DNA of 64,000 nucleotides from Microthyrium microscopicum (lineage: Eukaryota). The DNA is taken from NCBI GenBank assembly GCA_010405405.1, contig MU004243.1:801340-865339 (forward strand), given 5' to 3'. Below, one piece after another: positions 2,906-45,500 of the stretch. A model generated the notes under the pieces. It was not told the origin of the DNA, did no database searches, and saw nothing but the letters and a program-made list of their open reading frames with translations. Position 1 is the stretch's first letter, and each line of letters opens with the position of its first letter. The position numbers and the translations under genes are program-made.

Positions 2906-4536
2906 ATGGTTTCTGAAGAGGTTCGTCCCTGTTCATATGTCTTTCGCCATGGATCACTGATTATGAGCAGAGCCAACGTCAAGCCAAAGCCAGCGGCTTC
3001 TTCTTGGCAGCTGACCAAAAGACTCCGATCAGCAAGTCCATATCGAAATCAGAAGATGTTGGCGCAATGGCCATTACCGCTACCTCTCGAAAGCGCTCGC
3101 GGCCAGTGGACACGTCGAACGAAGAGCCAAATTCGAAGCGAGCAAAGTCCGCACCCGCTGTCATCGATCGCTCGCGTTCGGTGGAAGCAACATTCGATGC
3201 GCCAGTTTCGAAAGGTACAAAGCGCACCAAAGCTCCACCGACCACTTTGAATTTGACAGCACCCGGAAATCTGACATTAGCGCAATCTAAAGACCTTCCG
3301 GCTAGCCAGTCCACACTCGCCGTCGTCTATGATGATGTTACTCCTTCTCAAGATATCAAGAAGGGTAAGCTTGACGACAAGATCCTCCAAAATAACTCAG
3401 GCGAATTTGTGGCGCCAATTCCGAAGAGTTCTGTCGCATCGCAGCGCCGTCGTGTTAGAGTTAGACAGGCATATTATAAGCACCCTAGATTGTCCCAGCA
3501 AACTGACACAACCAACAACGCGATCTATAATGCGCACGATGACACGCCTAACGGCACTCCTCATGACACAAGCAATAATGCGACCAAAGGCTCGACCAGT
3601 TTGAGCCAGACACCATCCACCGATCGACCACAAAAAAGACCACCTCAATCATGGGTGTCTAGCAGTGGTATTCCTGCGATTGTTAGATCCGCCGAAACTT
3701 CGCTAGAAGACCACTCGTTGGAGTCTATCGAGCCGAGTAGGGCTGAAAGCTATCATCCAAACAAACTGCGATCTTCACGCCATGTCGCTGAAGCAAAGCC
3801 GAGTCTGATACGTAAAATGCGATCTCGTTACGATGCACGAGCACCAAAGAACCAGTCGGGAATGGTCAAATACCCAGATAGTCTCATCCAATGGTCTATC
3901 ACTGACAATCTACAAATGGCCAAAGACATGGGCCAAGCTGATAAATGCATGAAGGCTGAGGACTGTTTTATCAGCATTATCGAAGATTTCTGCGCAACAT
4001 ATCGTGTGGATTATGAGCTCACTGGCAAAAGCTTTCCAGAACTGTGGGCGGAGGTCAAAGGATTTGCGGGTAGGGTCTATATACACGATGAACGAGACTT
4101 CTTCCGCATTGCTGCTATACCTAAATTTGACCCAAGCGGAGAACGAAAGGCGACCTTGTCACCTGTATTAGCCGACTATCTTGCCCAGGCGTCGGGCTAC
4201 ACCAAATTCCGAAATGACTGTCCTGATATAGAGGAAGTGCTCCAGATGGAACGCGAGGTAGCCGTGGGTGATACTGAGATCGATTGGCTGGCAGATGAGG
4301 ACTCGGAGCGTACTTCAATAACCTCCGGAGCGACCCAAGATATCGAGTCGTCCAAGTCAGAATGGTCGTCAGATTCGGATTCGGATTCAGATGATGAAAT
4401 ACTCGCCGGGAATCAACCATACTATGGCGCATACAATGAAGGTCTCTGGGGGAAGATGAACATTCTCCGCAAAGATCCTTCGAAGGATTCCAACGGGATA
4501 CTACTGAAGAAGGCCGATTGCGTTCGGTTCGCTTGA
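2906..4536 (+). CDS. Unknown-function protein, paralog 2; join(2906..2920,2971..4536)
   Basis: ATG GTT TCT GAA GAG|GTTCGT donor, CTGAT branch and CAG acceptor at 2970 join in frame to ORF 3004..4536. Same conserved motifs as paralogs 1 and 3; basic NLS-like RKRSRP near the N-terminus and an acidic tail. Confidence 0.8.
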
Positions 4537-5509
4537 TACAGCTGGTTCTGAAAATATGAATCCGCTCCCTATTGACGGTCTGAGAGATTATCCATTTCCC
4601 GTTTGGCCATGCCCATCTCCCCATGCCCATCTCCTCGTGCCAATTCCCTTGTTTCATTGCTTCTTTCCAATATGAGCTATAGAAACATAGATCTTATGGT
4701 GGATTGATGCCAATGCCGACTGATTGTCTCGAAATTGCCCCCTTTACACTGCTCTGATATCAATACCGCTGGTTGAGATAGTCGTTATATCGTTATATAG
4801 AGCCCTTATCCAAGGTTTATTTTGCTGTCTTTAAAGCATTTGAGCGAGTGAAGCGAACTCAAGTAATGTAAAGTAACAACGCCTGTAATACATCCGCATC
4901 TGTTTTCAAGCATCACCATTTGGTATACGCTGTCTATCAGAGCGATTTCTAAGTATCAATCTCCCCTACGCCGGTCACGAGTCGTCACTATTCGCATCAA
5001 GTTTGCGATCAGAATTGCGGCAAGAGTTGACAGTCACCTTAGATTTGCGTAGAAAGTCGCGTCGACCGTCAACAACGCGTTGAAGCCACGCGGGTCACTG
5101 AAGTCACTGCCACCACCTATAACCATCACACAGAGCAACGCTGGATGACCCTAACCTTGCGTGGTCTTGCACCCAAGGCATGACCAGAGCACTCTTCTGC
5201 CACCATCTTTTACCCTCTTCAAACCTCTCACACCAACCTTTTTCCCACCATAAACGCAACGTTTACCATCAACGCTATAGCAACACCATCATCCTCCTTA
5301 CAACACTATCATTCTCATAATAACATCATCCTCTTCTCTATATCATAAACAGATTCACATTAACGGCTTGTCTAAAGGTTAGTCTTTTCCAGCCATGCTT
5401 CTAAACGATCACTGACCATTAGTAGACGCCCGCGCCAAAAGCGACCACTCCTATCCAGACTCAAGTCATTAAGAAGAACCCATCAACAACACCTGCCTCC
5501 AAGACCAAC

Positions 5510-7144
5510 ATGGGTAAGCTCATTCGCCGCGCCAATGGCCCTCTCAACTTTTCTGGTAGAGCGGCCAAACCACAACCAACACGCCGCCGCGTTGCTTCGG
5601 CTACCACCTCAACTGGCGCTGCGGTATCAATTGTCACCCCAGAGAGCTCACGAGCCTCCCCGGATGTCAAGCTTGAGAGCGAGGAGAGCGGTGGTGATGA
5701 ACTCGATGCCGCTCGGTCCTCTGCGCCGCAAGAGAAAATCATCATCTCATTCAAGCGCAAGCGCGTCGATGAGAGAATCAATACCTCTCAAGAAGTCAAT
5801 GCCATTGAGCTAGCTCCAAAGCAAAAAAGTCTCACAACTTCATCCAAGCGCAAGCGCGTGGCTGAGCAGGGCGATCCCGAAGACGTCGTCGCATCTGGGC
5901 CAGTCCCTAAGCGCATCAAGATTGTCGACGGCGATAAATTGCTTCTCGGCATTGTGCTTGCACCCGAACATGCCTTGCCCACCCCACAAGAGTCGGCTAC
6001 CGACTCAAACAACTCGCATAAGCGCCAGCGAAATGAAAGCGAAGAGGTCGATGATGAGCGACCGGCCAAGAAAGTTCGCGTGGAAAGCACACTCACCTCA
6101 TCCACCTCAGCAGAGTCTTCGCCCATGTCGGTGCCTCTGGTGTATTTTAGACACCCACGGTTGCCACCAGCAGATGAAATCGAGGACGCTTCGGCAGATG
6201 AGAGCGAGGAAGATCCTTCAGATGAGGCCAAGGAAGGTTCACCAGAGGAAGTTGAAGAAGGTCCATCAGGTCAGGCCAAGGAGGGTTCTTCAGATGGAGT
6301 TGCACCAGAAGAGCCAAAGTTGAGTGAAGAGCAGGGTAGTCAATTCTCCTACCATCCCAACTTCCTGCGTCACCCTGAGAATGTTGCTCTTGCGAAACCA
6401 CCCAAGACCTGTAACTTTAGAGGTTCTGGCGATCGCAAACCTACGGTCTATGACCCAGCAGCATTGATAACCTGGACCAAGCCATTTAGAGGATTAATGG
6501 AGTGGGCGATAACCGATAATCTTCGAATCGCAAAAGAGAACCGCGAGGCTCCTGAGGATCTGACTCCGCCAGAATGTTTCGCCATGATCCTCGAGGACTT
6601 CTGCCAGTCTTGGCACATTACAAAGAAGCTAGGTAAAAAGGGAAAAACTTTCGAAGCCCTCTGGGAGGATGTCGAAAGCTTTGGGGGTCGAGACCCATCC
6701 AAAAAGAAACAGAAGGACAAGAAAGGAAAGAAGATCCTAACTTGGCCTCCACTACTTGCGGACTACATAGCCCAGGCTTCGGGCTACATGCAATTCCGCG
6801 AGAACTGTGAGGACGTCTGGGGAGTTGCGCGAGTGGAAGAGCAGACCTCGAAAAACACAACTGAGGTCGATTATTCCAAGGAGATCATTGTTCCGGATGC
6901 TCCAATTCCTCCGAATCACACTCTCCTCCATGGTGGTGTCATTGTTCCCAACGGCACTATCCTGCGCAATGATGACGAGGAGTCTTCAGACTCTGATGCG
7001 GGTTCTGGTTTCGAAGACGACTGGGATGACGATTGGCTAAAGCCGACTGTTCGAGCTGGAACCGTTCCTATCGACATGGATGACAACGATGACAAGTCGT
7101 CCCGCTCTAATTCTAATTCCGAGGACGATTCTGATGGCAACTAG
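5510..7144 (+). CDS. Unknown-function protein, paralog 3 (544 aa)
   Basis: Long ATG-initiated ORF with the same conserved motifs, several KRKR/PAKKVR basic clusters and an acidic tail. Probable 5'-UTR intron at ~5378-5425 (GTTAGT...CTGAC...TAG). Confidence 0.85.
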   Translation: MGKLIRRANGPLNFSGRAAKPQPTRRRVASATTSTGAAVSIVTPESSRASPDVKLESEESGGDELDAARSSAPQEKIIISFKRKRVDERINTSQEVNAIELAPKQKSLTTSSKRKRVAEQGDPEDVVASGPVPKRIKIVDGDKLLLGIVLAPEHALPTPQESATDSNNSHKRQRNESEEVDDERPAKKVRVESTLTSSTSAESSPMSVPLVYFRHPRLPPADEIEDASADESEEDPSDEAKEGSPEEVEEGPSGQAKEGSSDGVAPEEPKLSEEQGSQFSYHPNFLRHPENVALAKPPKTCNFRGSGDRKPTVYDPAALITWTKPFRGLMEWAITDNLRIAKENREAPEDLTPPECFAMILEDFCQSWHITKKLGKKGKTFEALWEDVESFGGRDPSKKKQKDKKGKKILTWPPLLADYIAQASGYMQFRENCEDVWGVARVEEQTSKNTTEVDYSKEIIVPDAPIPPNHTLLHGGVIVPNGTILRNDDEESSDSDAGSGFEDDWDDDWLKPTVRAGTVPIDMDDNDDKSSRSNSNSEDDSDGN

Positions 7145-16600: not shown

Positions 16601-17898
16601 GGGACTTGGCCTTGTTGTGATGAGCACCAGACATGAATCACAGGATACAAGCTTTATGGCGGAGTCCAGACAGTCGGTGCATGAGCTCAAGGAGAGTTTT
16701 CTCATCATTCCGCTTCGCTTGGAGCATACCTGTAGGTAGTGTATGCTTTGGATTGTTTACGCAGCTAATGAACGACTAATCTGCCTTTGGGGTCCTTTTA
16801 CTTCGGACAATTGGTTACTAATGATGTCTGGTGATCTTGTTGGTCGTCGAAAGTGCGCATGGCAAGTACTTCCCTAATTGAGTTACGGCCCGCGGAAAAC
16901 GCGATATCGTGGCGTAAAAGCTCCCCCTGGATGTTTTGGAAAATCGCGGGGAAAGAGCATGCACTTTCATCGCCTCGCCATGTTGATCCCGAAGGAGGTT
17001 TCGTTCTCTTCTCTTTTTGATCGTCGACAAGATTTACATGCACATTCTATGCATTTCGGTCTTCACCTACACTCCAAAGATAATGTAAAGACACAATAGT
17101 CTATTGTAACCGAATCTGATAGGGCTGGAAGCCTACAACGTGTTTCCTTATCGCCCTAGCGTCTAGAATTCCGATTTCAGCTGAGTTTAACCGCCAACCG
17201 GCTTGCAATCTGGGAAATCGGATGTTTAATTGGCGACAATTCGATGTTATTGTACCTTGATTCTCAGCCGCGATTTGAGGCGTAGCTGAAGTAATCCCAA
17301 TTAAGCCAGACGTGTGTGGTTATCTTATACACCGCTACGGATTGAGCCTGCAGACTCAGTTGCGAAGCGTACACGATGCATTTGTTGGCGTCAAACAAAT
17401 GGTCATTTACCGTTTGGATGGATAAAACAACCAATTCGAGAGACTGATGACAAGAGGCCAGTGCAGGATGCAGTTGATATGGCAGAGACTTCAGCCAGCC
17501 CATTCACTTACATAACAGGAACCAATAGCATGGCTGCTTGACACACCAAAACTGCTTCATTGGATTCCCAATGCTTCACCAGCCTTGTCAGTCGTTGCGC
17601 AATTGATGAAGTGGTTTAATCATAAGAATATCTCTTGTCCTGCTTTATATTATTTGAACTTATTCCAACCTACAAAATCCTCAAAATCTCACTTCATACA
17701 TACCATTACCTACTCTACACAACAACCCGAAACTTACCCCACAAAACCCATCGCCGAACGGTTGGCTAGTACGAAACAGATCAAGCTTTTTGGCAACACT
17801 TACCGGCTGCACTTGCCCAAATTGGACTTGGCTACCCATTTTCCTGCGCAGTGACGACTGACGTATCAGAATTTGCCTGTGGCTCAGTACTAGCAAAT

Positions 17899-19533
17899 AT
17901 GCCTGCGGCACGACTACTTCTCCCCAATGCCCTCCATAAGATCCAGCAAAAGGCCAGCGAATTGCGGGTCAACGCCGCCTCAATATCATCCAGTCTCTCT
18001 TCCTCTTTATCCCAAGCATCATCTAGCACATCATCACTCGGTTCATTTGCCTCAAGCGATCGGCCCGATCGCGAAACAATGGATATGCTCAAAAGACACA
18101 GCATCTCATTAAATTCTGGCAAGAGCCAACGCAAGGACTCATCCAGCTCGTCGTCGTTATTCACAATAGAACTGGTCACCGAGTCACCACCCTTGATCTC
18201 TTACAATGAGAGCTCTGAATCGACGGGGGCTATTTATAGCGGCGAAATCAAGATCCGAATTCTCTCCACCTCACCACAAATATTTGAAAAGATAGAAGTT
18301 CGCCTACTACGCACCAACACTATTCGCAAACCTGTATCTTCAAGTTGTCCAGATTGTTCTTCTATCTCCAAGACTTTGAAAACATGGCAGTTCGTACCAG
18401 AGGAATCTTTGTCCCTATCGCCTGGAGACCATAAGTTCCCTATAAGTTACCTTTTTCCGGGAGAATACCCGACGACTACACATTCACATCTTGCTCAAGT
18501 GGATTATGCCTTCAAAGGTATTGCGCAGATTAAGAACTCCGAGAAACTCACATTTGCGCAAACTGTTGAGCTCAAGAGAGCCATCCGTCCCGGACTGGAG
18601 CGCCAATCCATAAGAGTATTCCCTCCAACCAACATGGCTGCCAATGTCAAACTCACCCCAGTATGTTTCACTAATAGCGAAATACCTGTCACACTCAAAC
18701 TTTCCGGCATAACGACTATCGGCGAAAAGCAAATCACAAGGTGGAGATTACGCCGCCTTCTATGGCGAGTTGAAGAGTACCAACGTATCTGGTCGCCCGC
18801 ATGCGCTAAACATCAATCAAAACTCGCAGCAGGCCAACAGGGCATCAAGCATGAAGAAATCAAAACTATTGGTGATGGCGAGGTCAGCTTCAGCAAAAAC
18901 CCCTGGAAAACCGATTTATCTACTGGAGAGATCAATTCCGAGTTTGTCGCAATTCTCAACCCGAAACACAAGGTTCAAGTTGGTTCTGCCGTTCCTGACA
19001 TCAATCTCATGATTTGGCACCATCTTGTCGTCGAGATGATCGTGGTCGAAGAATGGGCTACCAAAAAGACACCTACCCGCTCAACTCCAACTGGCGCCGC
19101 CAGAATCCTTCGATCTCAGTTCCCACTCAAGATCACCAACCGGGCTGGACAGGGTGTCGCTTGGGACGAGGAAATCCCTCCAATGTATCAAGATGTTCCT
19201 TCCAGTCCACCGATCTACCAACCTGGCGAAATCGCCCCTATGACTCCTGGTCTTGCCCATATTTTGGAGATTGACATTGCTCATGCTGGCGAGGCTATTG
19301 AAGATTTTCATCTTGGCGAACCACATGCCATGGCTCGACAGACTGCTGTTGCTAGTTCATCGAGGGTGACCAGACGGGGTTCCAGTGCTTCGAGAGAACG
19401 GCCACAACGCGCACCACTTCGGCTTTCGGTAGATGACTTTATGCAAGAACCTCCCGAATATCGAAGAAATGATGAAGATGAAGAGCCAGAAGTAGATCTT
19501 CAAGTGGTTGATGGAAGTGCTCCAGCACGATAA
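17899..19533 (+). CDS. LDB19: Alpha-arrestin-related trafficking adaptor, LDB19/ART1-like
   Basis: Intronless ORF with an arrestin-like fold region (HKFPISYLFPG, SIRVFPPTN, WRLRRLLWRVEE, PTGAARILR), a CPDC motif and C-terminal PPxY motifs (PPMY, PPIY, PPEY). First ATG at 17899. Confidence 0.8.
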   Translation: MPAARLLLPNALHKIQQKASELRVNAASISSSLSSSLSQASSSTSSLGSFASSDRPDRETMDMLKRHSISLNSGKSQRKDSSSSSSLFTIELVTESPPLISYNESSESTGAIYSGEIKIRILSTSPQIFEKIEVRLLRTNTIRKPVSSSCPDCSSISKTLKTWQFVPEESLSLSPGDHKFPISYLFPGEYPTTTHSHLAQVDYAFKGIAQIKNSEKLTFAQTVELKRAIRPGLERQSIRVFPPTNMAANVKLTPVCFTNSEIPVTLKLSGITTIGEKQITRWRLRRLLWRVEEYQRIWSPACAKHQSKLAAGQQGIKHEEIKTIGDGEVSFSKNPWKTDLSTGEINSEFVAILNPKHKVQVGSAVPDINLMIWHHLVVEMIVVEEWATKKTPTRSTPTGAARILRSQFPLKITNRAGQGVAWDEEIPPMYQDVPSSPPIYQPGEIAPMTPGLAHILEIDIAHAGEAIEDFHLGEPHAMARQTAVASSSRVTRRGSSASRERPQRAPLRLSVDDFMQEPPEYRRNDEDEEPEVDLQVVDGSAPAR

Positions 19534-20391
19534 TGCACAACTTTTCTTTTCTGTATAGCATTGCATTGGGCGGCAAAGTTATTTCTTCGACTTATTTTTG
19601 AACAATCACGATACCCTCGGTTAGCATTTATCAAGATACGGGGACTGGTTGTGGCGTTGAGCGGGTTCTAAAGGAACAGCATGGCGTTGGTCTGAGAAAA
19701 AAAGCTGGAAGCAAACATCGTTGAGCTTGCTGCTGAATGCATATCCTAGTTATCATCAAATGAATCTAATTTTTTCCATCCCTAACAACTTTTGTCAACT
19801 GACCTATCTACATTCCTAATCTCCTATCTTGATACGTCCAGCCAACTTCTCCACACTTGCTTCTACGTCACTGAGCACTTGACATGCTATCATTTATAGC
19901 GATAGCTCGATTTCCCGGTATTGCAGTATAAGGTCTATAAAAGCTCTCTGAAACAAGTATATGATCGGCGTACTCCTTCAACAACCCCGGTCCTTCCGTC
20001 CAATAAGATCAGCCTCCTAAACCTATAGTGTCAATCTAAACAGACCTCCACCGATCTCAATATCAAGGCACCTCCAACCCTCGAAAGTATTCCTGCTTAG
20101 AGCTCACACATTTTTCCAAACTTTTGGTTGATGCCCTGCTGTAGTCCATAGATGCCCTGTATTAAGTCTCAAATTATACGTCATTGTCCTTTCATGTCCC
20201 GCTTCTATAGTTGCTGTTATAATTTCTTGATAAGATTGATATTAACGGGAGATCGACTTTGATCTGCTTTAGTTCGGTCTGTTAAATTGCCTTTTGAAAT
20301 GATGTAACGGCGCTTAAACTATGTTGCTATATACAGACATCGTGCAGTTCTAGTAATTTGTTGGACTCAACGTTCGTTCAACTCTGCTAAT

Positions 20392-22079
20392 ATGCATATC
20401 TCAGCAACAACGACTCTTGCCCTTGCTGGCGCTGCTACAGCGCAAAAATGCTCGCCTCTTGAACTCATCTACGGTATCACTTCCATCCCCATAACCACTT
20501 CATCTTACTGACCTCCCTTTCCAGCGCGCGCAACAACCGAAGCACCAAAAGATATAACCGCAACAGCCACTCCCGAACAATTCGATGTCGCAGCAGCACA
20601 ATTCTGGTCCAAAGGCTACGGCGCCGCCGGCTACAGTCTCTTCACCAATATCACCGCTCTCATCCCCTCTGCCACCGGCTACCCAGTCCACTACCCAGCC
20701 AACTGGGACTCGGCGACATCCGCACCCACCGGCGTCAAAGATATGCTCGCGAGACTGGAGAGTCAGGCGAAAGCATGTCCGCAACAAAAGTTTGTGCTGG
20801 GTGGCCATTCGCAGGGAAGTGGTGTAACGGTTGCTGCAATCCCAAAGATCAGTCCCGAGTTGTTAGCACGCGTGGTCGCAGTGACTATGTTTGGGGGGCG
20901 TGAATGTCCTGAGGCTGTGACGGGGAGGTGTAGGAGTTTTTGTAATGCTGGCGATGTAAGCACAACCATCCCTCTCTCCGCCTTGGTCACAAAGCTGACT
21001 TTCATATCCAGATGTGTATGCCTGGCGCCAAACGACCCGCTCCCAACTCAAGCGGTGCCAGTCCACCACCGCCAAAAGATAGTTCCTCCGCTCCCCCAGC
21101 ACCAAACGGCGTGCCGAAAACATCACCCGTCGAAGGAGCTCAAATGGGCACTCCACCACCAAAAGGCACCCAACCACCACCCCAACCCGCCGCACCGTTG
21201 AAAACACCGCCAAAAGTCCCCGTCGCACCCGCCTCAGGAGCAGAAATACCACCACCATCACCACATACTAGCCCAAGACCCTTCCGGCGCCAAGTACATC
21301 CACCGCCGTTCCCAGCGAAGGAGGAAGCAAGAGCAAAAGGCACACTAGCACCCCTCTCCACACCACCATTCGTCCCCATCTCACCAGCCTCAGGCGCAGA
21401 AATCCCTCCCAAGAATCTACTCATGAAACGACAAACCGTACCAGCGCCAAAGCCAATGTCAGTATCACCAGTCGAAGGCGGCGAAATCAACAAAACACCA
21501 CCAAAAGGCACCCAACCACCCCCTCAACCTGCGCCGAAAGCACCCCTCCCAGCATCGCCAATGTCAGTCTCGCCAGTGGAGGGCGGTGAAGTTAATAAGA
21601 TTCCCCCACCAAAAGGCTCAACTGAACATGCAGTTCCAAGGGTGCCCATCGAGTCTGCGAAGGGTGCGGCGATTCCGGCGACGAAGAGTATACCGGCCGG
21701 CCCACCAAGTAGTCCACGCATGAAACGGCAGTCTATGCCGAAGAGCCCCGTTGAAGGTGGAGAGGTGAATCCAGTGCCAGCGAAGGGATCGCAGGCACCG
21801 CCTCAGCCTGCGCCGTCGCCGAAGATGCCTGTTTCGCCGGCGGAGGGGGCGGAGGTATCGCCGAAGAATGTGTCGAAGGGTGTGACGAAGGGTAAGGCTG
21901 CGATGATGAAGAGACTGACGACGGGGATGGATCGTTCAAGGGAGGTGGAGGAGCAGGGACATCAGCCTGTGAGTGTGGCGGGTGATAGTGCGCATACGAT
22001 ATATAATAAGGATGGGTATTATGTTTATGCGGCGGCGTGTTTTGTGCAGAGGATGTATGTTGCTGCTGGGGGGAAATAG
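20392..22079 (+). CDS. Secreted cutinase (CE5) with a large Pro-rich repeat insertion; join(20392..20473,20525..20955,21012..22079)
   Basis: Signal peptide MHISATTTLALAGAATA, then C..ELIYARATTE, VHYPA, ACPQQKFVLGGHSQG (nucleophile Ser), VVAVTMFG, RSFCNAGDMC (catalytic Asp) and C-terminal AHTIY...AAACFV (catalytic His). Both introns are canonical and keep frame. Confidence 0.9.
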
Positions 22080-23006
22080 GGGGTATTTGTATGATATGAC
22101 GTTTTTTTGAATGAAGCATTTAAATTACTCACGTTGATTCCTCAGGATTATTTGAGGATGTTGTAGAGTTTTTCATTTATGATTAGTAAAATCAGAAGTG
22201 TTGTAAACGATCAAAAAAAAAACGGGCTAGCAATGGTGGGACGTTGATGCCCCTGTTACCCCTTCTTCTATTTACAGTTAAAGAAATAGACTTGATCTTT
22301 AGTCCCTAAGGGTAAATTCCAATCCCCTATTCCAAGGCCAAGCTGTGTGGCTAAGCAAAATAATGTGGCAAGTGGCCTCGAACATCACAAGTCCCGACCA
22401 TCAACAGATCCCAACACTCCAGCAAGCCGGACACCAGAGAGATATACTATCTTTGCACGAACTTGACCCTCTATCCTTAGGAAAATGCAATCAAACGAAT
22501 CCATAAGTCTGTGAACTTTCGAGTGCTCTTTCCAACAAAAATCTTCTCACCTCAAAATCTCCACGGCGCGCGTAATCGACATCTCAGCCTTGCCCTCAGC
22601 CTTATGGCAACTTTCCAGCCTTGCGCGTAACAGTTTCTCGATCTCTCGAATTTCATTTCGGACTCCTGAAACCGGCACGACAAAGAATGGTTATATAGCA
22701 GCGTATACTCGTTTGATCGAAGTTATGGATGGATGTTGAGCCGAGCAATGGAGGTGTTGGATGGGATTGATTCATTGAAAAGCAGGTCAGGTTGAGTGGA
22801 GAGTGGCTAACATGTTATGACGGTTTCGATCATTAAAGAGCTAAGTTTGGCAAGGTTAGAGACCATTTTACTTAATACTCCACTCCTCCCTGGCGCCAAT
22901 ATGGGCTCGGCCGATTGTATTTTCTATGACCTTTGAAGTCATTCGCTCACTTCAATCCAAATTGTCATGATCTGCTCAACAGCAACTTGATCACTGTACA
23001 CGTATT

Positions 23007-29515: not shown

Positions 29516-32500
29516 TCATCGCCTGTCATGAATCTTTTCATGCCTCTTTCGGTCATTGTCTCGTGTGAATGCTCGTCCACATTCTGTGCAGGCAAAGGGC
29601 TTCTCGCCATTGTGGCTCCTCATGTGAGCATCCTAGAAGTTGTCAGGAACCAAAGGTATATATTTACCTTCGATCTTAATCGTGACAGAATTTTGCTAGG
29701 GTGAGATTTTACCTTGTGCAACTTGCGACTGAAGCTTTTAGCACAGAGAGGACAGATGTGTCTGGACTGTGGTGTTTCTGGCTTCGGCTTGAGCTTGAAA
29801 ACTTCTGACAGGTCCATTTGATCTGGATGATAATCTCTCACATGCTTCTCCAGTTCTTTATTCGAGGTAAATCCAAAATCCGAAAAAGTACAATCCGGAA
29901 CTTCACAGTTCCATGGTCTTCGATGTTTGTCGACATGCTGATCTCGTGCTTTCGCATTGTTGAATCCTTCGTAGAAGTTGAGGCAGTTGATGAACGAGCA
30001 TTTGAATCGTTTGAGACCATAATACTGCCTTAACGCTTTCCCTTCGTCAGTGTATCTTGTAAAACTGTCTGATAGCTTCTCTACGAGCTTTCGGTTCCGC
30101 TGCAAAGCTTTGTTGAGCGATTCAAAACACACTTCATTTCGGGGTATTTGGCCCTTCTCCATGTGTCTCGAAACATGGCTCATGATCAATGTCAAGTCAG
30201 GGTAAACCTCCTCATCTGCGAGATGTGCAAAATCTCTTTTCACACCATGGTGTAAGGTCTGGTCTGGGATATCATCTTGGTAACGCAGCACGAAAGGTGA
30301 CAGTGAGTCGCAAAGTGCCTCCAGGGCCGTCAGGTTGCCTTGGACTTTAAATCCTTCCTTTGAAAGGACTGATGCCAAGGCACTCAGATGCTGAAACCAT
30401 TTCGATACCGCATATTCTTGCATAGCCAACCATCCGGTCATGACGGATACTTGGACCTTGTCATCATCGTGCTTCGAGTCGAAAAAGTCCATGCAGAGAT
30501 ACCTTAGGCAGAGAGTTGCCAGTTGACATTCTACGTCCAGTTCCATAATGTATCGTGTCTGGACAAGATAACTTCTAGTATGTCAGCAAAGTCTATGAGC
30601 AAGGGCAGGAGTGCAGCGTGCAACCGGGCCGTATTGTGCACAAGTTCCAATCTTTCTCCTGGAAGCTCCCGAATCAAGATTCCACATTTTTTTGCTAGCT
30701 GTCCTATGGACCCTATTGCTTCGCTGCAATGGAGGTTCTCATGCTCATCAGTCAAATCTAATCCAAAAGCACACTGAAGTTCATATCTCTTCAGTGGGCG
30801 TTTGGCACAGATCATCCATCCAAGAAGTCTTGTGATTTGGCTCCAGACTCTGGAAGTATGCTTCCACTGTCGCTCAAGACGACTCAAGATTCTCTCATAC
30901 CTGGAATGAACTCAGTGACTTTATGACAGTAATAACCAATGGGGATCAATTTGCAGGGGACGTACGCATCTGCAAGTTTAGAGGGAAACTTATCATCGTC
31001 TAGCTCTGCTACCACGTTGATTTTGCAATCTTGTGCATCAAGATTTTCTAGGACTAACGTCGCGTAGAGAAACATACCTGCAACATGTCAGCCCATATAT
31101 TCCAGAGCCATTTTCAAATGTAGATGTATACCATTCGCTCTTGTAGACACGAGTTTTTTGATACACTCTGATTGCTGGATTTCGAGATCGAATTTAGCCT
31201 CAATTCGACCCACGCGCTCGTTGACGAAAGATTCAATCTCCTCTTTGTTATCTTTCTGCTGGATGGCAAGATTTTGGATGGAGAAGCTAGGCCGTTTTTG
31301 AGAACTCTTATGTAGTGCCTCAGCAATATCTGGTTCACACTGGCTGGCAATGAGCAAACGAAAACTTCCAGGCTGCTCTTCCATGTGCTCTACAACTTCA
31401 GCCAGAAATGATAGCAAAAGCTTTCGTTCCTTCGAGGGGGACTCATCCAGGCCATCTATCATAACAAAATGCTTTGAGATTCTTTCGCAAGAGATTCTAA
31501 ACAGACCTTCGGCAAGCTGATGAGATTTTAAAGTTTCTTGGCCACTCGAGTTGATCTTGCTGAAGAAAAAAGGTACTAGGCTTCGTTCCTGGCTTACCAT
31601 ATGAACCAATAGGCCAGTAAGAATTGAAAGGTAGCTCGTTCTGTTGGGGTCAGATGCATTGCAGTAAAAGAACGAGGTTTTAAACTCCACTCTCTTCTGG
31701 CACTCTTCAACGATCCGAGATACTAATATTGTTTTGCCTAGAAGCAACAGATTAGCGCCACTTTCGAGGACTATTGATATAAGTACTTGATCAGCTCACC
31801 TGCTCCTGGTATTCCATGCAACCACACTACGGGATTGGATGGTGTATCGTCTTCCATCCAGCTAAGGATTCTTTGATCACGCATTATCCAGTCGCCGCTG
31901 CCAGGATTGTTCTTCCTGACGCCACAGAAATATTCGTGGTCCGAAATCTGGACGTAGGTCTGCTTCTGCATACCTTTATCATCCGCGGGCCGCGGAATAG
32001 TCAACCATTCCAACACCCGCCGGTACTTTTTATACATCTGATCTTCCTCATCCTTGTGTAGTGTCATGAGTACCGTCTCTCTTTCCAACTCATAAGTGTT
32101 GAGTTTCTCCAAAAGCTGCAAGCTGATATCTGATCTACTATCGGCGTCTACCAGTCGGGAGAGTAACTCGGTCGAGTTATTGTGACGTTGTAGGTTTCCT
32201 AGAATTCCTTGAAACCTACAGTCTCTGAATTGCTTCCAATTTGCTTTGAAGAGCTGCTTCCAACCGCGGTAAGAAAATAGACGCTGGGCCTTGATGTGAA
32301 ATTCGAGTATGTCCGCGTAGAGCCAGCATGTTACTCGATGCATGATAGGGTAATTGTTGAAAAGATCCTCTTTTCCCGGTAAGAATGACAGCTTTTCACC
32401 AATGTCCTCATATGCGCTCAGCAGCGCATCAAAAATTTCTGAGATGTGACTAGCTTTCTGTCTTTCTTTTCAGTTCTTTTATTACCCACCATCATAATGC

Positions 32501-33569
32501 TACAAGGTGGAGTTGTACTCACCACAATCATGTCCTTCATGGTACCCCATATACATGTTGCGAGGTCCTCAAAGCCAGATAGACTCGTGGTTATCTTCAT
32601 AAAGACGTCCATGCCTTTAAAAAAGTTCTCCAGACGGGCAAGCCTCATTAGTGTCTTCTTGCCTTCTTGTTCTCGCTGCAATTGAAGAATTGTTTGCTTG
32701 ACATTCTTATATGTGATTTTACGAAATGCTGTGTGCTCTTGATATGAGACCATACTCATTAGATTGCTGTTTATCTTTTGTATCGCGGTCATGACCTGGC
32801 TTAGATCGATTTGGATTTTTCGATGATGTGCAGGGTAGTTTTGTTTGATTTCCCTGAGCAAACGTTCATTGGCATGCTCTCTGCCTTCGCCGTAGTTCAT
32901 AGGCAATGAGACTCCCATGATGCCCATTAGCGAGTAAGCCATGTCTTCTCCACGTCTAGTTCGTCTGGTTCCTACCCACTGGAATTTATGTATAGGGTCA
33001 TAGTCTGATAAGGATCCGCCTTTTAAGATACCGACAGGAAGACCAGTTGCCTCACATATCAAGTCACTCAAAGAATGTCTGTCGCCAAGGAGTATGCCTT
33101 CGACCGAAAAGAACTGCACGGTACTGGGAGCAATAAGTTCTTGAAGTGTCCAGCCTCTGGTGAACCATCTGCTTCGTAGAAATGCCTTCTCCCATGGTTG
33201 ACCACGTTTCGCGTGGCCTTTATCGCTGCCATATTCCACGTCTGTTAGAGATACATAGCATACTTTGGCTTCCTGATACCATCGAAACATTGAAGTGATA
33301 GCCTCGCTTAATTCGACCAAGTTCTCTTTCTGAATACAACAAGTGTCTATCCAAAAGAATTCAAGATTATCAATTGAAGCTTGTTGGGCGCAGAAGCTGA
33401 TCTTGTCGTACCCGGGCTTTTTCTTTCCTGTGCCGTCCTTAACATCTCTGTATGTAACTTCATCGTCATCGTCGCCCCAAGTGTGTGAAAGGATAGCATA
33501 AGGCGGTCTATCTTTCTCTTCGTACGTACACAAATTTGCTCTGCCGTGGTGGTAGTCAAGAAGATGCAT
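29516..33569 (-). CDS. NLR-like STAND protein: HET domain + helical N-terminal domain + NACHT + winged helix + four C2H2 zinc fingers (multi-exon)
   Basis: HET motifs [29 protein letters not shown] and [13 protein letters not shown]. Helical domain [21 protein letters not shown]. Walker [12 protein letters not shown] (split by an intron at ~31738-31799), Walker [30 protein letters not shown]. Zinc fingers CSFINC..H..H, CEVPDC..H..H, CPLC..(intron 29633-29712)..HMRSH, linker [27 protein letters not shown]. Stop at 29516-29518. Confidence 0.88.
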
Positions 33570-33928
33570 AGCTTGGATGCTTTGTCTCCATCAAGGTTCC
33601 AATCTGAGCAAGGTGATGTGAAGGAAGAGAAGCAGTCATGTAGACCTCTGATGATGTCTGACCATGCTACGAGCTGCAATGAAAAGTACCATAGCGCGCG
33701 ACGGGGGGTAATGGAAATGGTGTTATGAGGATGTTTTCATAATTTCCAATAATGTTTAGCAAAAACATAGCACTTCTCGGGAGAGGGAGAGAAATTATAG
33801 ATTAGTTTAGAGTTATTATTTTCCTAATAAGGCCTATTTTTAGGCTAAAAATAATGTATCTTAGAAAAACGCTCTTTATACCCTCTAAAAAAAGTGGTAA
33901 TGTAGGTCAAAACCGGCATCACTTTATC

Positions 33929-42510: not shown

Positions 42511-45500
42511 ATGCAGCCACGCAGCCGGCGGGCTAGATACCCTCCTCCTACCCAAAGACACTTGTCTCCTGCTGCAAAAAGCCCGGGCCTGGACAAACGC
42601 ATCACTCTGGTCACTGAGGTTAGTTTAACATCAGAACCACGTCCAGTGTCCCCTGCGCCAGAGCAGCTCCTACAACAACAATCGCTTCTCCGCCGTTCAG
42701 CCTCTGTGCTTTCTGGCGATACCCTCTTCTCCTACCCATCCTCCACCACTACATCCGCAATGGCCGCTCGCGGCGCGCGCAGTCGCAAAGTCGTCGAAAA
42801 AGTTATCAATAAGGAAGCAGACAAACGCCAAACCGAGCGCTTCAGCTCCATCGCGTCTCCCGGCCCTGATGCATCGCGCGTCACGTCTCCAGTCGCCGGC
42901 TGGCGGCGCAAGAATTCTGTTACCAACAGCGGAGCCTCAATCCGTTCAGGCGAAAGTGATTCGTCCACTAGTACGGGCGCTCGCATTGCCAAAACGCTGG
43001 CGGCAACCATACAACCAGCTCCGGAGGAGAAGTTTGTTGCGAAGAATAATAAAACTACCGCGGCTCCAAGGGGGCGCGGAGGAGGGGTTCCAGCGAAATT
43101 GTCAGAGGCCAAGAATGATCGTGCGCGAGTGCGATCAGTGAAAGCTGGAAGGTCAACACAATCATCGTTGGGTTTCAGACCATTGAGCCGATCGACAACA
43201 AGCTCGGAACGTGCACCCCACGCTCGATCGTGGGAGAACACCAGGGTCTGGTCTGGAGGTGTTGGGCTTCCAAAACAATATCGCGGCTTTGAGCATGTAA
43301 GATATCACTATCGAAACTGTGACTGAGGTTGGAATTATGCTAATTGCTGCTTGTTAGGATGATGACATGTGGATGTCGGATGGCAACTGCCTCATTTTCT
43401 TTGCGGAAGAAACCAACGAAGATGATCCTCGTCCCATGTGCCGTATGCACAGCCAAACTCTCGAACAAGCCCGATCAGTGTTTATGATCAATCTTCTACG
43501 ATATGGGGAGATTGTTGCAGAAGAAGACGAGCATGACTTTGCTCCACCATCATTCTCGTCCGGTCAATCGTCTCATGGTTATCAAAATACCTGGCCATTG
43601 ACCGAGGGATCTTTAGGAAATCTGGATGAAATGCTCGATGATCCTGGCTTTGATGATATACATGGTGCAGGCTTGTCGCCTCGTTTCAGCAGCAGAGATA
43701 CATGGTCTAGTGGACCAACTGTTGCTGGCTCGCCCGAACAAGTCACCCGTATACCATCACTTCCATTAAACAAGCACGTCGCTGAGAGTGATGGAAGTGC
43801 TAGTGCTTCAGCATCAAGAGCTTCTGATATCACTCATGAAATCTGGTTCCGGGCTCCATCTCATATCACCCGACCGGACATTCAACGGCGTCACCATATG
43901 GCTACTCGGAATTACCTGGCTCTTCTTTATGGTCTCCCTATCATTGGAAATGATTATTACGAGATGCTATCGGATCTTCAAAATGTAATGGACACCTACT
44001 ACGAACTCAATGATCAATCTGAAAGGTGGGATTCAGCTCAGGTCATCATCCAATATCTTCAACAGCGTCAGCTTGATGATGTCCGAGGCAACTTGTCAGC
44101 AGCTCTTGGACTTATGGCTTGGTCAGAACAAACATCCGTAAGGTGGGAAGCAGGTTATATTGAGGGCTTCGTTCATGCTGTAGGTATGATGAGCCAGAAG
44201 ACAGTAGATATGCGCGAGTTTAAGCTTCTGTCGCCTGTCAGTAAACACAAACTCCACAATGCATACGACTCTCAACAGCTTCGGTTCCTCGAAGCCGAAG
44301 AACGTCTCGCCAACTTCAACTTCCCAGAGCTGTGGTATGCAGAAGGCGTCGAAACCGGCCATACAGCTCAACGAGCGTTTGACGAATTCCGCGCATTCTT
44401 AAGCTGCTTCTATGCCACAGTCTGGAGTAGCTGGCCACCCAAAGAAAAGGACCATCAAGACCGATGGCTTAGCCGAACAGTCGTCAATCGACTCCAAGCA
44501 GATCTCGGCGCTCTATACGACTACATCGTCGATCGCGATATCAAATGGGATGTCAGTGAATCAAGGCATACACGCAAATGGGAAATGATATCACAGAGCA
44601 ACTACCGCTCTACCACATTCAATCCTGACATCCCCGGCCTGCCTGTCACCAACATGCTCGTCGGTTTCGACTCGTCCATGCGATTCGATCACATCCCCCA
44701 CCCCTTTCCTCTCGTCCCTGCGTCAAACGCACCCGCGAAAGAAAAGTCTGGCAAAAAGAGCTTCTTTGGCCGCCTTTCCAAAAAGGAGACGCCCGTCGTA
44801 GCAGGTCCTAAGGAGCAATATCAAATGGCTCTGGCCTTCAATGCCGCCACGAACGTCGACCGTCTAGGTACAGCTTTCAAAGGTAAACATCCACCCTTTT
44901 CAGTCCCTAGTTCTGCCTCTCTAACAAGATCATAGACAACAAACTCCTCGACACATTCCAGACCCACGAAAAGTCTTTCCCGCCAGCCACCCTCCCGCCA
45001 TCTGACGCCCGTCTCGGTCGCTGGATCCTACTCTACGCCGTCCTCCAAGTCCTCTCAACCCTCTCCACAGACGTTCTCGGCCTTCGATACGCCGCCAAAA
45101 TTCGCTACTTTGCCAACCCATCCATCGACGGCCTTCCTCCATGGCGCCACTCGTCTCCCAATGCGCTCACTCAGTCCACTTCTAACACCTCTCTCTCCTC
45201 ACCAAGCTCCTCAGGCCAACCAGTGCCACTAGTCCGCGCAGCCTCGCAAACCCTTTCATACTGCTGGCTCGCACCCGCCCGCTGGGCACGTGGACCGGAT
45301 AGTTCTGGCGCAATGACGCCGACGCCGCCGGCCTATGAGATGCCTGGCCCTTTACATGTTACGCCATTGCAACTTAACTCCTCACCACTATCACCACTAA
45401 ATCCTTCACAGCCAATGGGACCACAGCTAAGTACAGCAAGTCTAAACAGCATCCCACCAGGACTGAACCTTGACCGTGCAACCCTCTCACGAACAAGTCT

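Follow-up and report, generated by a model that had tools for sequence, protein, structure and literature searches.

Cutinases are minimal alpha/beta hydrolases and are workhorses for the degradation of polyesters, including polyethylene terephthalate. The solved cutinases of family CE5 (Fusarium solani pisi; 1CUS, 1CUH, 8JCT, 5AJH) carry the motifs G-x-S-Q-G, C-x-x-G-D, and H-x-x-Y, and an N-terminal Cys with its partner positioned before the nucleophile. In the structure of F. solani cutinase, one wall of the substrate cleft is built by the loop that connects the catalytic Asp to the His. The gene described here is located in a 64,000-nucleotide window of the genome of Microthyrium microscopicum, a Dothideomycete of the order Microthyriales (assembly GCA_010405405.1, contig MU004243.1, positions 801,340 to 865,339; the coordinates below are those of the window). 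Its product, P0001, has the same motifs, the same pair of Cys residues, and, in its model, the same alpha/beta fold. However, the catalytic Asp and His of P0001 are 328 residues apart, compared to 12–15 in ordinary cutinases, a spacing that is a typical feature of these enzymes and not a formal criterion. It is plausible that P0001 is cleaved by kexin (Kex2) into a two-chain enzyme.

The yeast killer preprotoxins K1 and K28 and the two-chain aspergilloglutamic peptidase mature by losing an internal peptide, which is cut out at dibasic sites. There, as may be the case for P0001, an internal segment of one precursor is cut late in secretion and the two chains stay together, but the proteins belong to other folds and families than cutinase. 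We know of no cutinase that matures in this way, and the full-text literature outside subscription journals yielded no cutinase with an Asp-His insert or with Kex2 maturation. The Kex2-processed repeat proteins (KEPs), which include alpha-factor precursors, Rep1 of Ustilago maydis, and ustiloxin-type precursors, resemble P0001 in their signal-like N-terminus and in modules that end in KR or RR. In contrast to the free-standing KEP precursors, the repeats of P0001 interrupt a catalytic domain between two residues of the triad.

The gene has three exons on the forward strand at 20392–22079 (Table 1). Its predicted product of 526 residues is letter-for-letter P0001 and is 100% identical to the NCBI entry 'hypothetical protein BT63DRAFT_444063 [Microthyrium microscopicum]'. 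The whole protein matches the Pfam Cutinase profile PF01083 at residues 55–173 (E 6.4e-18, 65.7 bits against a cutoff of 25.9), and exon 2 alone matches profile positions 12–142 of 173 (E 1.9e-16). The triad motifs G-x-S-x-G, C-x-x-G-D, and H-x-x-Y are represented by GHSQG, CNAGD, and SAHTIY, which align with the corresponding columns of the family. The Ser, Asp, His, the Gln that follows the Ser, and the ARATTE motif are intact. The product is probably a secreted cutinase-like esterase with a CE5 fold and a triad of Ser123, Asp171, and His499, its secretion being suggested by the N-terminus. A first-pass annotation had placed the catalytic Asp and His 328 residues apart, and both the coordinates and the spacing are correct.

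The structure of P0001 was predicted with AlphaFold2 from a 59-row alignment composed of P0001, 15 of the 16 other proteins matched by a search with exon 2, and 43 of 150 phmmer rows chosen at a length of at least 198 residues; P0009, the C-terminal half of which does not align, was omitted. The predicted local distance difference test score (pLDDT) is 94–98 for residues 21–170 and 90–97 for residues 481–526. Means of ten-residue blocks from residues 181 to 460 are 33–51, as in disordered regions. Residues 16–526 of the model align by VIA-align to residues 27–213 of F. solani cutinase with a Z of 20.8–21.1 and a root-mean-square deviation of 2.2–2.4 Å. The alignment includes 167–171 of 197 residues (165–171 across the solved cutinases), and the best row is 8JCT (Z 21.4). 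The best match of the model by Foldseek is 1CUZ (E 1.5e-9). As judged from the alignment of the whole model, and not from the geometry of the triad, the His-bearing segment is predicted to return to its normal position in cutinases and to complete the fold. The alignment extends through chain residue 213, which supports the earlier interpretation at the level of the fold. Before the His, P0001 contains an ordered stretch (EEQGHQP…) that the solved cutinases lack, and it also has additional Cys residues. The last 46 residues, which are in frame with the insert, are 61% identical to those of the closest homolog, P0002 (E 4e-20). The CGT codon of Arg479 is one transition away from TGT.

The search with exon 2 against longer proteins provided 17 matches, all of which belong to PF01083 and, except for P0001, have lengths of 255–352 residues. 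The matches originate from Trichodelitschia (T. bisporula), Venturia spp., Tothia fuscella, Eremomyces bilateralis, one species of Onygenales, and metagenomes. In every aligned match, GDxxC is followed by low-complexity sequence, a conserved Cys, E-(E/K)-K-G-H, and then AH..YN.DGYY..AAAC. The Asp-to-His distance is 52–146 residues in all 18 members of this subfamily for which the two residues could be located, to which a paralog from M. microscopicum (P0012) also belongs, and 328 in P0001. In the same alignment, the distance is 12–15 in 24 ordinary cutinases, 18 in one, and 30 in another, in agreement with the spacing of about 13 residues quoted for ordinary cutinases in the first-pass annotation. 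The variation in insert length among relatives, which that annotation proposed to look for, is present. Thirteen rows of the alignment have no H..Y after the Asp and are mostly truncated or mis-called models; P0152 contains AHTY, in which the Tyr is not spaced from the His, and in P0010 the His is replaced by Lys. In the library of representatives, the matches with E better than 1e-30 that reach past the Asp are all long-looped except for P0026, the short tail of which looks mis-called, and ordinary cutinases first appear near E 1e-14. No solved structure matches past profile positions 176–181, just after GDxxC. The AlphaFold2 model of P0002 (260 residues) has a confidence of 48–60 at approximately residues 171–210 and at least 90 from approximately residue 211.

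Members of the subfamily are 55–72% identical to P0001 over exon 2, contain the motifs ARATTE, GGHSQG, and YN.DGYY..AAAC, and have a low-complexity loop at the position of the P0001 insert; in many of them, a basic site is located close to the C-terminal end of this loop. However, the loops of the relatives are formed by 51–145 residues, compared to 327 in P0001, do not contain internal repeat modules like those of P0001, and cannot be aligned with its loop; the relatives also have a Cys where P0001 has Arg479. These sequence comparisons indicate that the insert is the extreme case of a loop found across a subfamily mostly of Dothideomycetes. The earlier reading of the insert was right in that the insert is real, but incomplete in that it is the far end of a subfamily trait and not a one-off.

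Two members of the subfamily deviate in the triad: P0024 has GGHGEGG in place of GGHSQG, and P0010, from Tothia fuscella, has lost the His to Lys. It is possible that some members of the subfamily are non-catalytic. The metagenome gene calls P0025, P0030, P0080, P0082, P0125, and P0156 end within a few residues of GD with unrelated tails (GDFV…, GDTV…, GDPV…), a pattern that would arise if the gene caller had read through a conserved intron located at GD or immediately behind it.

The insert has the properties of a coding sequence. Its frame contains no stop codon over 966 nt, as the first-pass annotation had stated, whereas the other two forward frames contain 10 and 11. Dinucleotide-preserving shuffles of the insert have on average 7.1 stops, and none of 2000 is stop-free. 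A frame-blind search for DNA repeats identified nine families (D1–D9) in the insert, and the spacings between copies are multiples of three in 13 of 13 cases; a tenth family, which pairs exon 2 with exon 3, looks like chance. Mismatches between the DNA-defined repeat pairs are distributed 11/11/32 over codon positions 1/2/3 (P = 1.2e-4). Three disjoint protein-defined pairs give a split of 16/7/39, a count that is biased by selection of the pairs for peptide identity.

Evidence from RNA is provided by one public run, X1, which is labelled 'RNA?' and contains 84% of the sampled words. An X1 contig that begins at 20289 splices intron 1 (join 20472 to 20524, GT..AG), and a 60-nt contig with a depth of 6.1 splices intron 2 (20955 to 21012, GT..AG). 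A 956-nt contig with a depth of 8.3 spans exactly 21012–21967 without a joint, other letters, or indels. The precise splicing of the introns at GT..AG indicates that the run holds spliced RNA, in which the insert is present as continuous sequence. The joint from 20955 to 21012 and the unbroken contig thus provide the RNA support for an exonic insert that the earlier annotation had named as a check. No X1 contig covers 21968–22202, where the His codon, the stop, and the 3' end are located, but such a hole proves nothing.

We assign hardly any likelihood to the view that the insert is an artefact of annotation, either intronic or part of a decaying pseudogene or a non-catalytic relative. The dependence on a single run labelled 'RNA?', the abundance of a form that retains intron 2, the triad losses in P0024 and P0010, and the loss of a conserved Cys from P0001 speak for it. 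However, no X1 contig joins across the insert, while the same run removes introns 1 and 2 exactly. Coding sequence is also indicated by the open frame, by repeats that stay in frame, and by the bias of mismatches toward third positions; the frame continues stop-free into the C-terminal segment shared with P0002, and the catalytic residues and the ARATTE motif are preserved.

Two kinds of alternative introns were considered and rejected. An 81-nt GTGAGT...CAG intron at 21969–22049 would take out the conserved His segment; the stretch has no CT dinucleotide from which a branch-site-like motif could be formed, and no contig joint supports the intron. Long introns from 20956 or 21016 to approximately 21965 have no joint in the X1 contigs. 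The 5' leader, as represented in the contig starting at 20289, contains an upstream open reading frame of 10 codons (ATG…TAG, 20321–20353).

The insert consists of 24% P, 11% A, 10% S, 8.4% K, 8% G, and 7.5% V; Ser and Thr together account for 15%, and the net charge is +18. The motif [SA]P..G[AG]E[IV] occurs in six exact copies, at residues 243, 295, 323, 358, 416, and 446, and in two degenerate copies, at residue 209 and, identified by eye, near residue 386. These numbers are in line with the approximately eight repeats reported previously. Six copies were reached in none of 5000 shuffles, in which the mean was 0.0024. The copies belong to two types of unit. Type 1, SPVEGGE(I/V)N..PPKG(T/S)QPPPQPAP, is found at residues 209, 323, 358, and 416, and type 2, P-x-(V/M)-P-x-x-P-A-x-G-A-E-(I/V)-x-P, begins at residues 238, 290, and 441; a further copy of type 2, at residue 380, is degenerate.

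By the Nei-Gojobori method, copies of the core repeats (rows R1, R2, R2b, R3, and R1core) differ by a proportion of synonymous differences (pS) of 0.40–1.1, compared to a proportion of non-synonymous differences (pN) of 0.05–0.29. Constraint is weaker in the rows that cover the residues immediately preceding the dibasic sites (pN 0.22–0.52). The two copies of SPVEGGEVN, at residues 358 and 416, differ by eight synonymous and no non-synonymous codon changes. Tandem Repeats Finder detects a single 12-nt unit with 2.1 copies and no recent tandem array. The saturation of synonymous sites together with the retention of the peptides indicates that the repeats are old and that selection holds the peptide sequence. 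As read from the sequence, the repeats of the insert are old internal duplications, and the peptide sequence of the modules is maintained by selection.

The conservation of the peptides bears on the idea that the insert is neutral, a permissive surface loop in which replication slippage or unequal crossing-over has built up low-complexity sequence and despite which the enzyme works. Such neutrality would fit the hypervariable length and sequence of the loop across the subfamily. It would also fit the Smith-Waterman comparison of the P0001 insert with the loops of 18 relatives, in which no alignable homology beyond composition was found (z up to 3.0), and the lack of homologs of the insert in large collections. 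A search with exon 3 against 5.8 billion proteins returned only P0001 itself among the 8000 candidates scored, and phmmer against 1.84 billion representatives gave 407 matches, none of them on the insert. A scan of metagenome contigs gave 292 pattern matches, none of which was confirmed. The ESM Atlas had no usable feature match for the insert, and its structure rows were limited to other disordered proteins with template-modelling scores of at most 0.29; Pfam found nothing in exon 3 alone at E up to 1. However, a neutral loop would not be expected to keep its peptides through divergence in which pS approaches 1, nor does slippage agree with the missing recent array, and we give neutrality a slim chance.

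The skew of G over C flips twice within the gene (20375–22100): the sequence is C-rich, with a skew of -0.3 to -0.46, at 20375–20750 and 20975–21575, and G-rich, with a skew of +0.1 to +0.58, at 20750–20975 and 21575–22100. In the insert, codons of the early repeat copies end in C or A, and those of the late copies in G or T.

The RR-Q, KR-Q, KR-Q, and KR-L sites listed in the first-pass annotation are all present, and the insert contains an additional, previously unlisted KR-P at residues 178–180. Each of the four dibasic sites that are not followed by Pro is positioned 8–18 residues after a copy of the type-2 unit, which indicates that the sites are part of a repeated module and are not scattered. 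According to a study of kexin motifs, the cleavage site has Arg at P1, preferably Lys at P2, and Leu or another aliphatic residue at P4; the canonical motifs are KR and RR, and the extended motif is LxxR (PMC8528282).

The loop of P0001 contains five [KR]R pairs, compared to 1.4 expected by shuffling (P = 0.008). The loops of 19 subfamily members, a set from which P0017 was dropped as a model without C..GD, contain 22 [KR]R compared to 7.0 expected, with at least one site in 12 of the 19. In contrast, the folded cores of the same proteins contain one dibasic site where 7.0 are expected. In the last 25 residues before the position of the conserved Cys, [KR]R occurs in 9 of 20 members (2.4 expected), and [KR]R or LxxR in 11 of 20 (3.2 expected). 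Four further members, left out of these counts, have MKIR, MDMR (twice), or PFMR in this stretch. The statistics of the sites fit a protein of which only the loop is accessible to a protease with dibasic specificity.

The main rival reading, which we consider less likely, is that the loop is never cut and that P0001 is a single-chain cutinase with a long, disordered, positively charged, Pro-rich loop. Such a loop would serve as a surface-binding or spacing element, for instance through adsorption to polymers of the cuticle or cell wall, or gate the active site, beside which it emerges. The predicted disorder, the content of Pro and Lys, and the charge of the insert are consistent with such a role, and short peptide motifs under purifying selection would also suit repeated binding motifs. 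The relatives without a dibasic site in the loop, 7 of 19, point in the same direction. Partner proteins (HsbA) are believed to bring cutinases to hydrophobic surfaces (PMC9632046), so a need for surface targeting exists. However, the enrichment of dibasic sites in the loops, their depletion from the cores, and their concentration at the C-terminal end of the loop are hard to explain if the loop is never cut. The composition is also a poor one for a classical O-glycosylated linker that would shield the sites, since such linkers are not expected to be low in Ser and Thr. The O-glycosylated tether offered as an alternative in the earlier annotation fits the insert poorly for the same reason, and because the insert is Lys-rich and positively charged.

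Cleavage of the loop and maturation of P0001 to two chains is the reading that we prefer, with a probability of approximately 0.55 for the reading as a whole. Several points weigh against it. Cleavage is deduced from sequence alone. The members of the subfamily are related, so the P values of the dibasic sites overstate their independence. Seven of the 19 loops, including that of the closest homolog P0002, contain no [KR]R, which means that cleavage cannot be essential to the subfamily. The segments between the dibasic sites of P0001 are irregular, with lengths of 85, 47, 99, and 62 residues. Secretion would depend on a putative signal sequence at the N-terminus. P0001, in which the Cys at position 479 has been lost, has seven Cys in total, an odd number for a secreted protein, which leaves one unpaired. 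Furthermore, a 116-nt X1 contig that retains intron 2 (20926–21041) has a depth of 10.7, compared to 6.1 for the spliced joint. Retention shifts the frame to a stop at 21199–21201 and yields a product without the His, and a sizeable share of the transcripts of the gene may be unproductive for this reason.

The likeness of P0001 to KEPs is partial. By Le Marquer et al. (2019; PMC6339444), KEPs are defined by a signal peptide and at least three repeats that are interspaced by KR, RR, or KK and make up at least 15% of the length, with motif sizes of 3–352 amino acids. In P0001, four modules each end in RR or KR, and the SPVEGGE… repeats are not individually flanked by dibasic sites. The fraction of the length depends on the unit that is counted: the seven 8-residue motifs comprise 56 of 526 residues (11%), and the four module ends, of 27, 22, 31, and 32 residues, comprise 112 (21%). 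By its sequence, P0001 would qualify as a KEP only ambiguously. The resemblance to Kex2-processed repeat precursors drawn in the first-pass annotation is incomplete, since the segments of P0001, of 47–99 residues, are long and unequal and not the short regular units of classical precursors, and their cleavage is putative.

Pfam scans identified no DUF3328/UstYa-type gene. They took in 79 of the window's 87 open frames with 110 codons or more (eight proteins including P0001, and 71 others) and could miss short or intron-split genes; the eight frames left out overlap the cutinase gene itself. Table S2 (row 5065) of the automated survey by Umemura (2020) lists the Venturia inaequalis protein RDI86499.1, which matches the Cutinase profile, as a stand-alone KEP candidate (PMC7329392). 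In the main text of that article the word 'cutinase' occurs 0 times and RDI86499.1 is not discussed. The supplements of Le Marquer et al. contain neither 'cutinase' nor 'Microthyrium'.

The hypervariable disordered Asp-His loop has grown to 327 residues in M. microscopicum by old duplications of modules. In the proposed mechanism, Golgi kexin (Kex2/KexB) would cut the exposed loop at the RR and KR module ends. The N-terminal chain, approximately residues 18–262, would contain the Ser and Asp and a Pro-rich tail. The C-terminal chain of 54 residues (473–526) would carry the His and be held non-covalently, because the Cys of the relatives is replaced by Arg479 in P0001. Three Pro-rich peptides, 265–309, 312–408, and 411–470, would be freed; once trimmed of the basic pairs, they would have lengths of approximately 45, 97, and 60 residues. 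Pyroglutamyl ends of the peptides and activation of a zymogen are pure inference. A more far-reaching scenario, which we consider rather unlikely, is that the whole subfamily is made as single chains that are cut by kexin to two chains at the Asp-His loop. In Microthyrium, the loop would have been amplified into a nested repeat-peptide precursor, so that one gene would give an enzyme and three functional Pro-rich peptides of 45–97 residues on the leaf or hyphal surface. The first-pass interpretation is thus partly supported. The exonic insert and the fold of the C-terminal segment agree with the data, and the case for a putative dibasic processing is strengthened; the insert is not unique in kind, the likeness to classical precursors is incomplete, and the O-glycosylated tether fits poorly.

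The subfamily is a natural lineage that tolerates 50–330 disordered residues exactly at the Asp-His loop, a permissive insertion site for enzyme engineering. Together with the depletion of protease sites from the cores and their enrichment in the loops, this tolerance suggests an undescribed step of maturation or regulation of the enzymes with which leaf-associated fungi, among them the apple-scab genus Venturia, degrade the cuticle. P0001 may be an enzyme that contains a peptide precursor. The hypothesis of maturation extends to the whole subfamily and is directly testable.

Table 1. Features of the Microthyrium microscopicum cutinase gene and of its product P0001, in order of position in the window.
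Feature	Position	Strand	Basis or remark
Exon 1	20392-20473	+	Start codon, probable signal peptide, first conserved Cys20
Probable signal peptide	Exon 1	+	MHISATTTLALAGAATA before Q, then KC; sequence resembles N-termini of homologs
Intron 1, 51 nt, GT..AG	20474-20524	+	Skipped by RNA contig
Exon 2, cutinase core	20525-20955	+	ARATTE, GHSQG, CNAGD
Ser123 of GHSQG	20809-20811	+	Nucleophile motif
Asp171 of CNAGD	20953-20955	+	Last codon of exon 2
Intron 2, 56 nt, GT..AG	20956-21011	+	Spliced and retained forms in RNA contigs
Exon 3	21012-22079	+	Open frame; insert, His-bearing C-terminal segment, stop at 22077-22079
327 codons between Asp171 and His499	21012-21992	+	Asp-to-His distance 328
Pro-rich, Lys-rich repeat region, residues 178-472, predicted disordered	21030-21914	+	AlphaFold2, composition, repeats D1-D9
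KR178-179, then Pro	21030-21035	+	Motif scan
Motif SPVEGAQM, degenerate	21123-21146	+	Motif scan
Motif APASGAEI, module M1 ending in RR263-264	21225-21248	+	Motif scan
RR263-264 (PFRR-Q)	21285-21290	+	Motif scan
Motif SPASGAEI, module M2 ending in KR310-311	21381-21404	+	Motif scan
KR310-311 (LMKR-Q), LxKR-type extended motif	21426-21431	+	Motif scan; PMC8528282
Motif SPVEGGEI	21465-21488	+	Motif scan
Motif SPVEGGEV	21570-21593	+	Motif scan
KR409-410 (RMKR-Q)	21723-21728	+	Motif scan
Motif SPVEGGEV	21744-21767	+	Motif scan
Motif SPAEGAEV, module M4 ending in KR471-472	21834-21857	+	Motif scan
KR471-472 (MMKR-L), border with conserved C-terminal segment; counterpart of the relatives' sites	21909-21914	+	Motif scan, alignment
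Arg479 (CGT) where relatives have a near-invariant Cys	21933-21935	+	Alignment; RNA contig shows no other letter
Conserved ordered C-terminal segment, residues 480-526, with His499 and Cys514	21936-22076	+	Homology, pLDDT 90-97
His499 of SAHTIY	21993-21995	+	Catalytic His codon

Upstream of the cutinase gene, the forward strand encodes an LDB19/arrestin-N-like protein at 17770–20205 (Pfam E 2e-39). It appears to be very abundant in X1, with a 3167-nt contig at a depth of 2534 that ends at 20205, which implies a 3' untranslated region of approximately 670 nt. On the reverse strand, adjacent open frames at 30534–33590 match the HET domain, NPHP3_N (NACHT-associated), and the GPI-inositol-deacylase winged-helix domain, and are probably parts of one intron-split fungal incompatibility gene of the NOD-like receptor (NLR) type. 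For three long forward-strand open frames, at 2917–4533, 5426–7141, and 43358–44932 (539, 572, and 525 codons), Pfam gives no match at E up to 1e-4.

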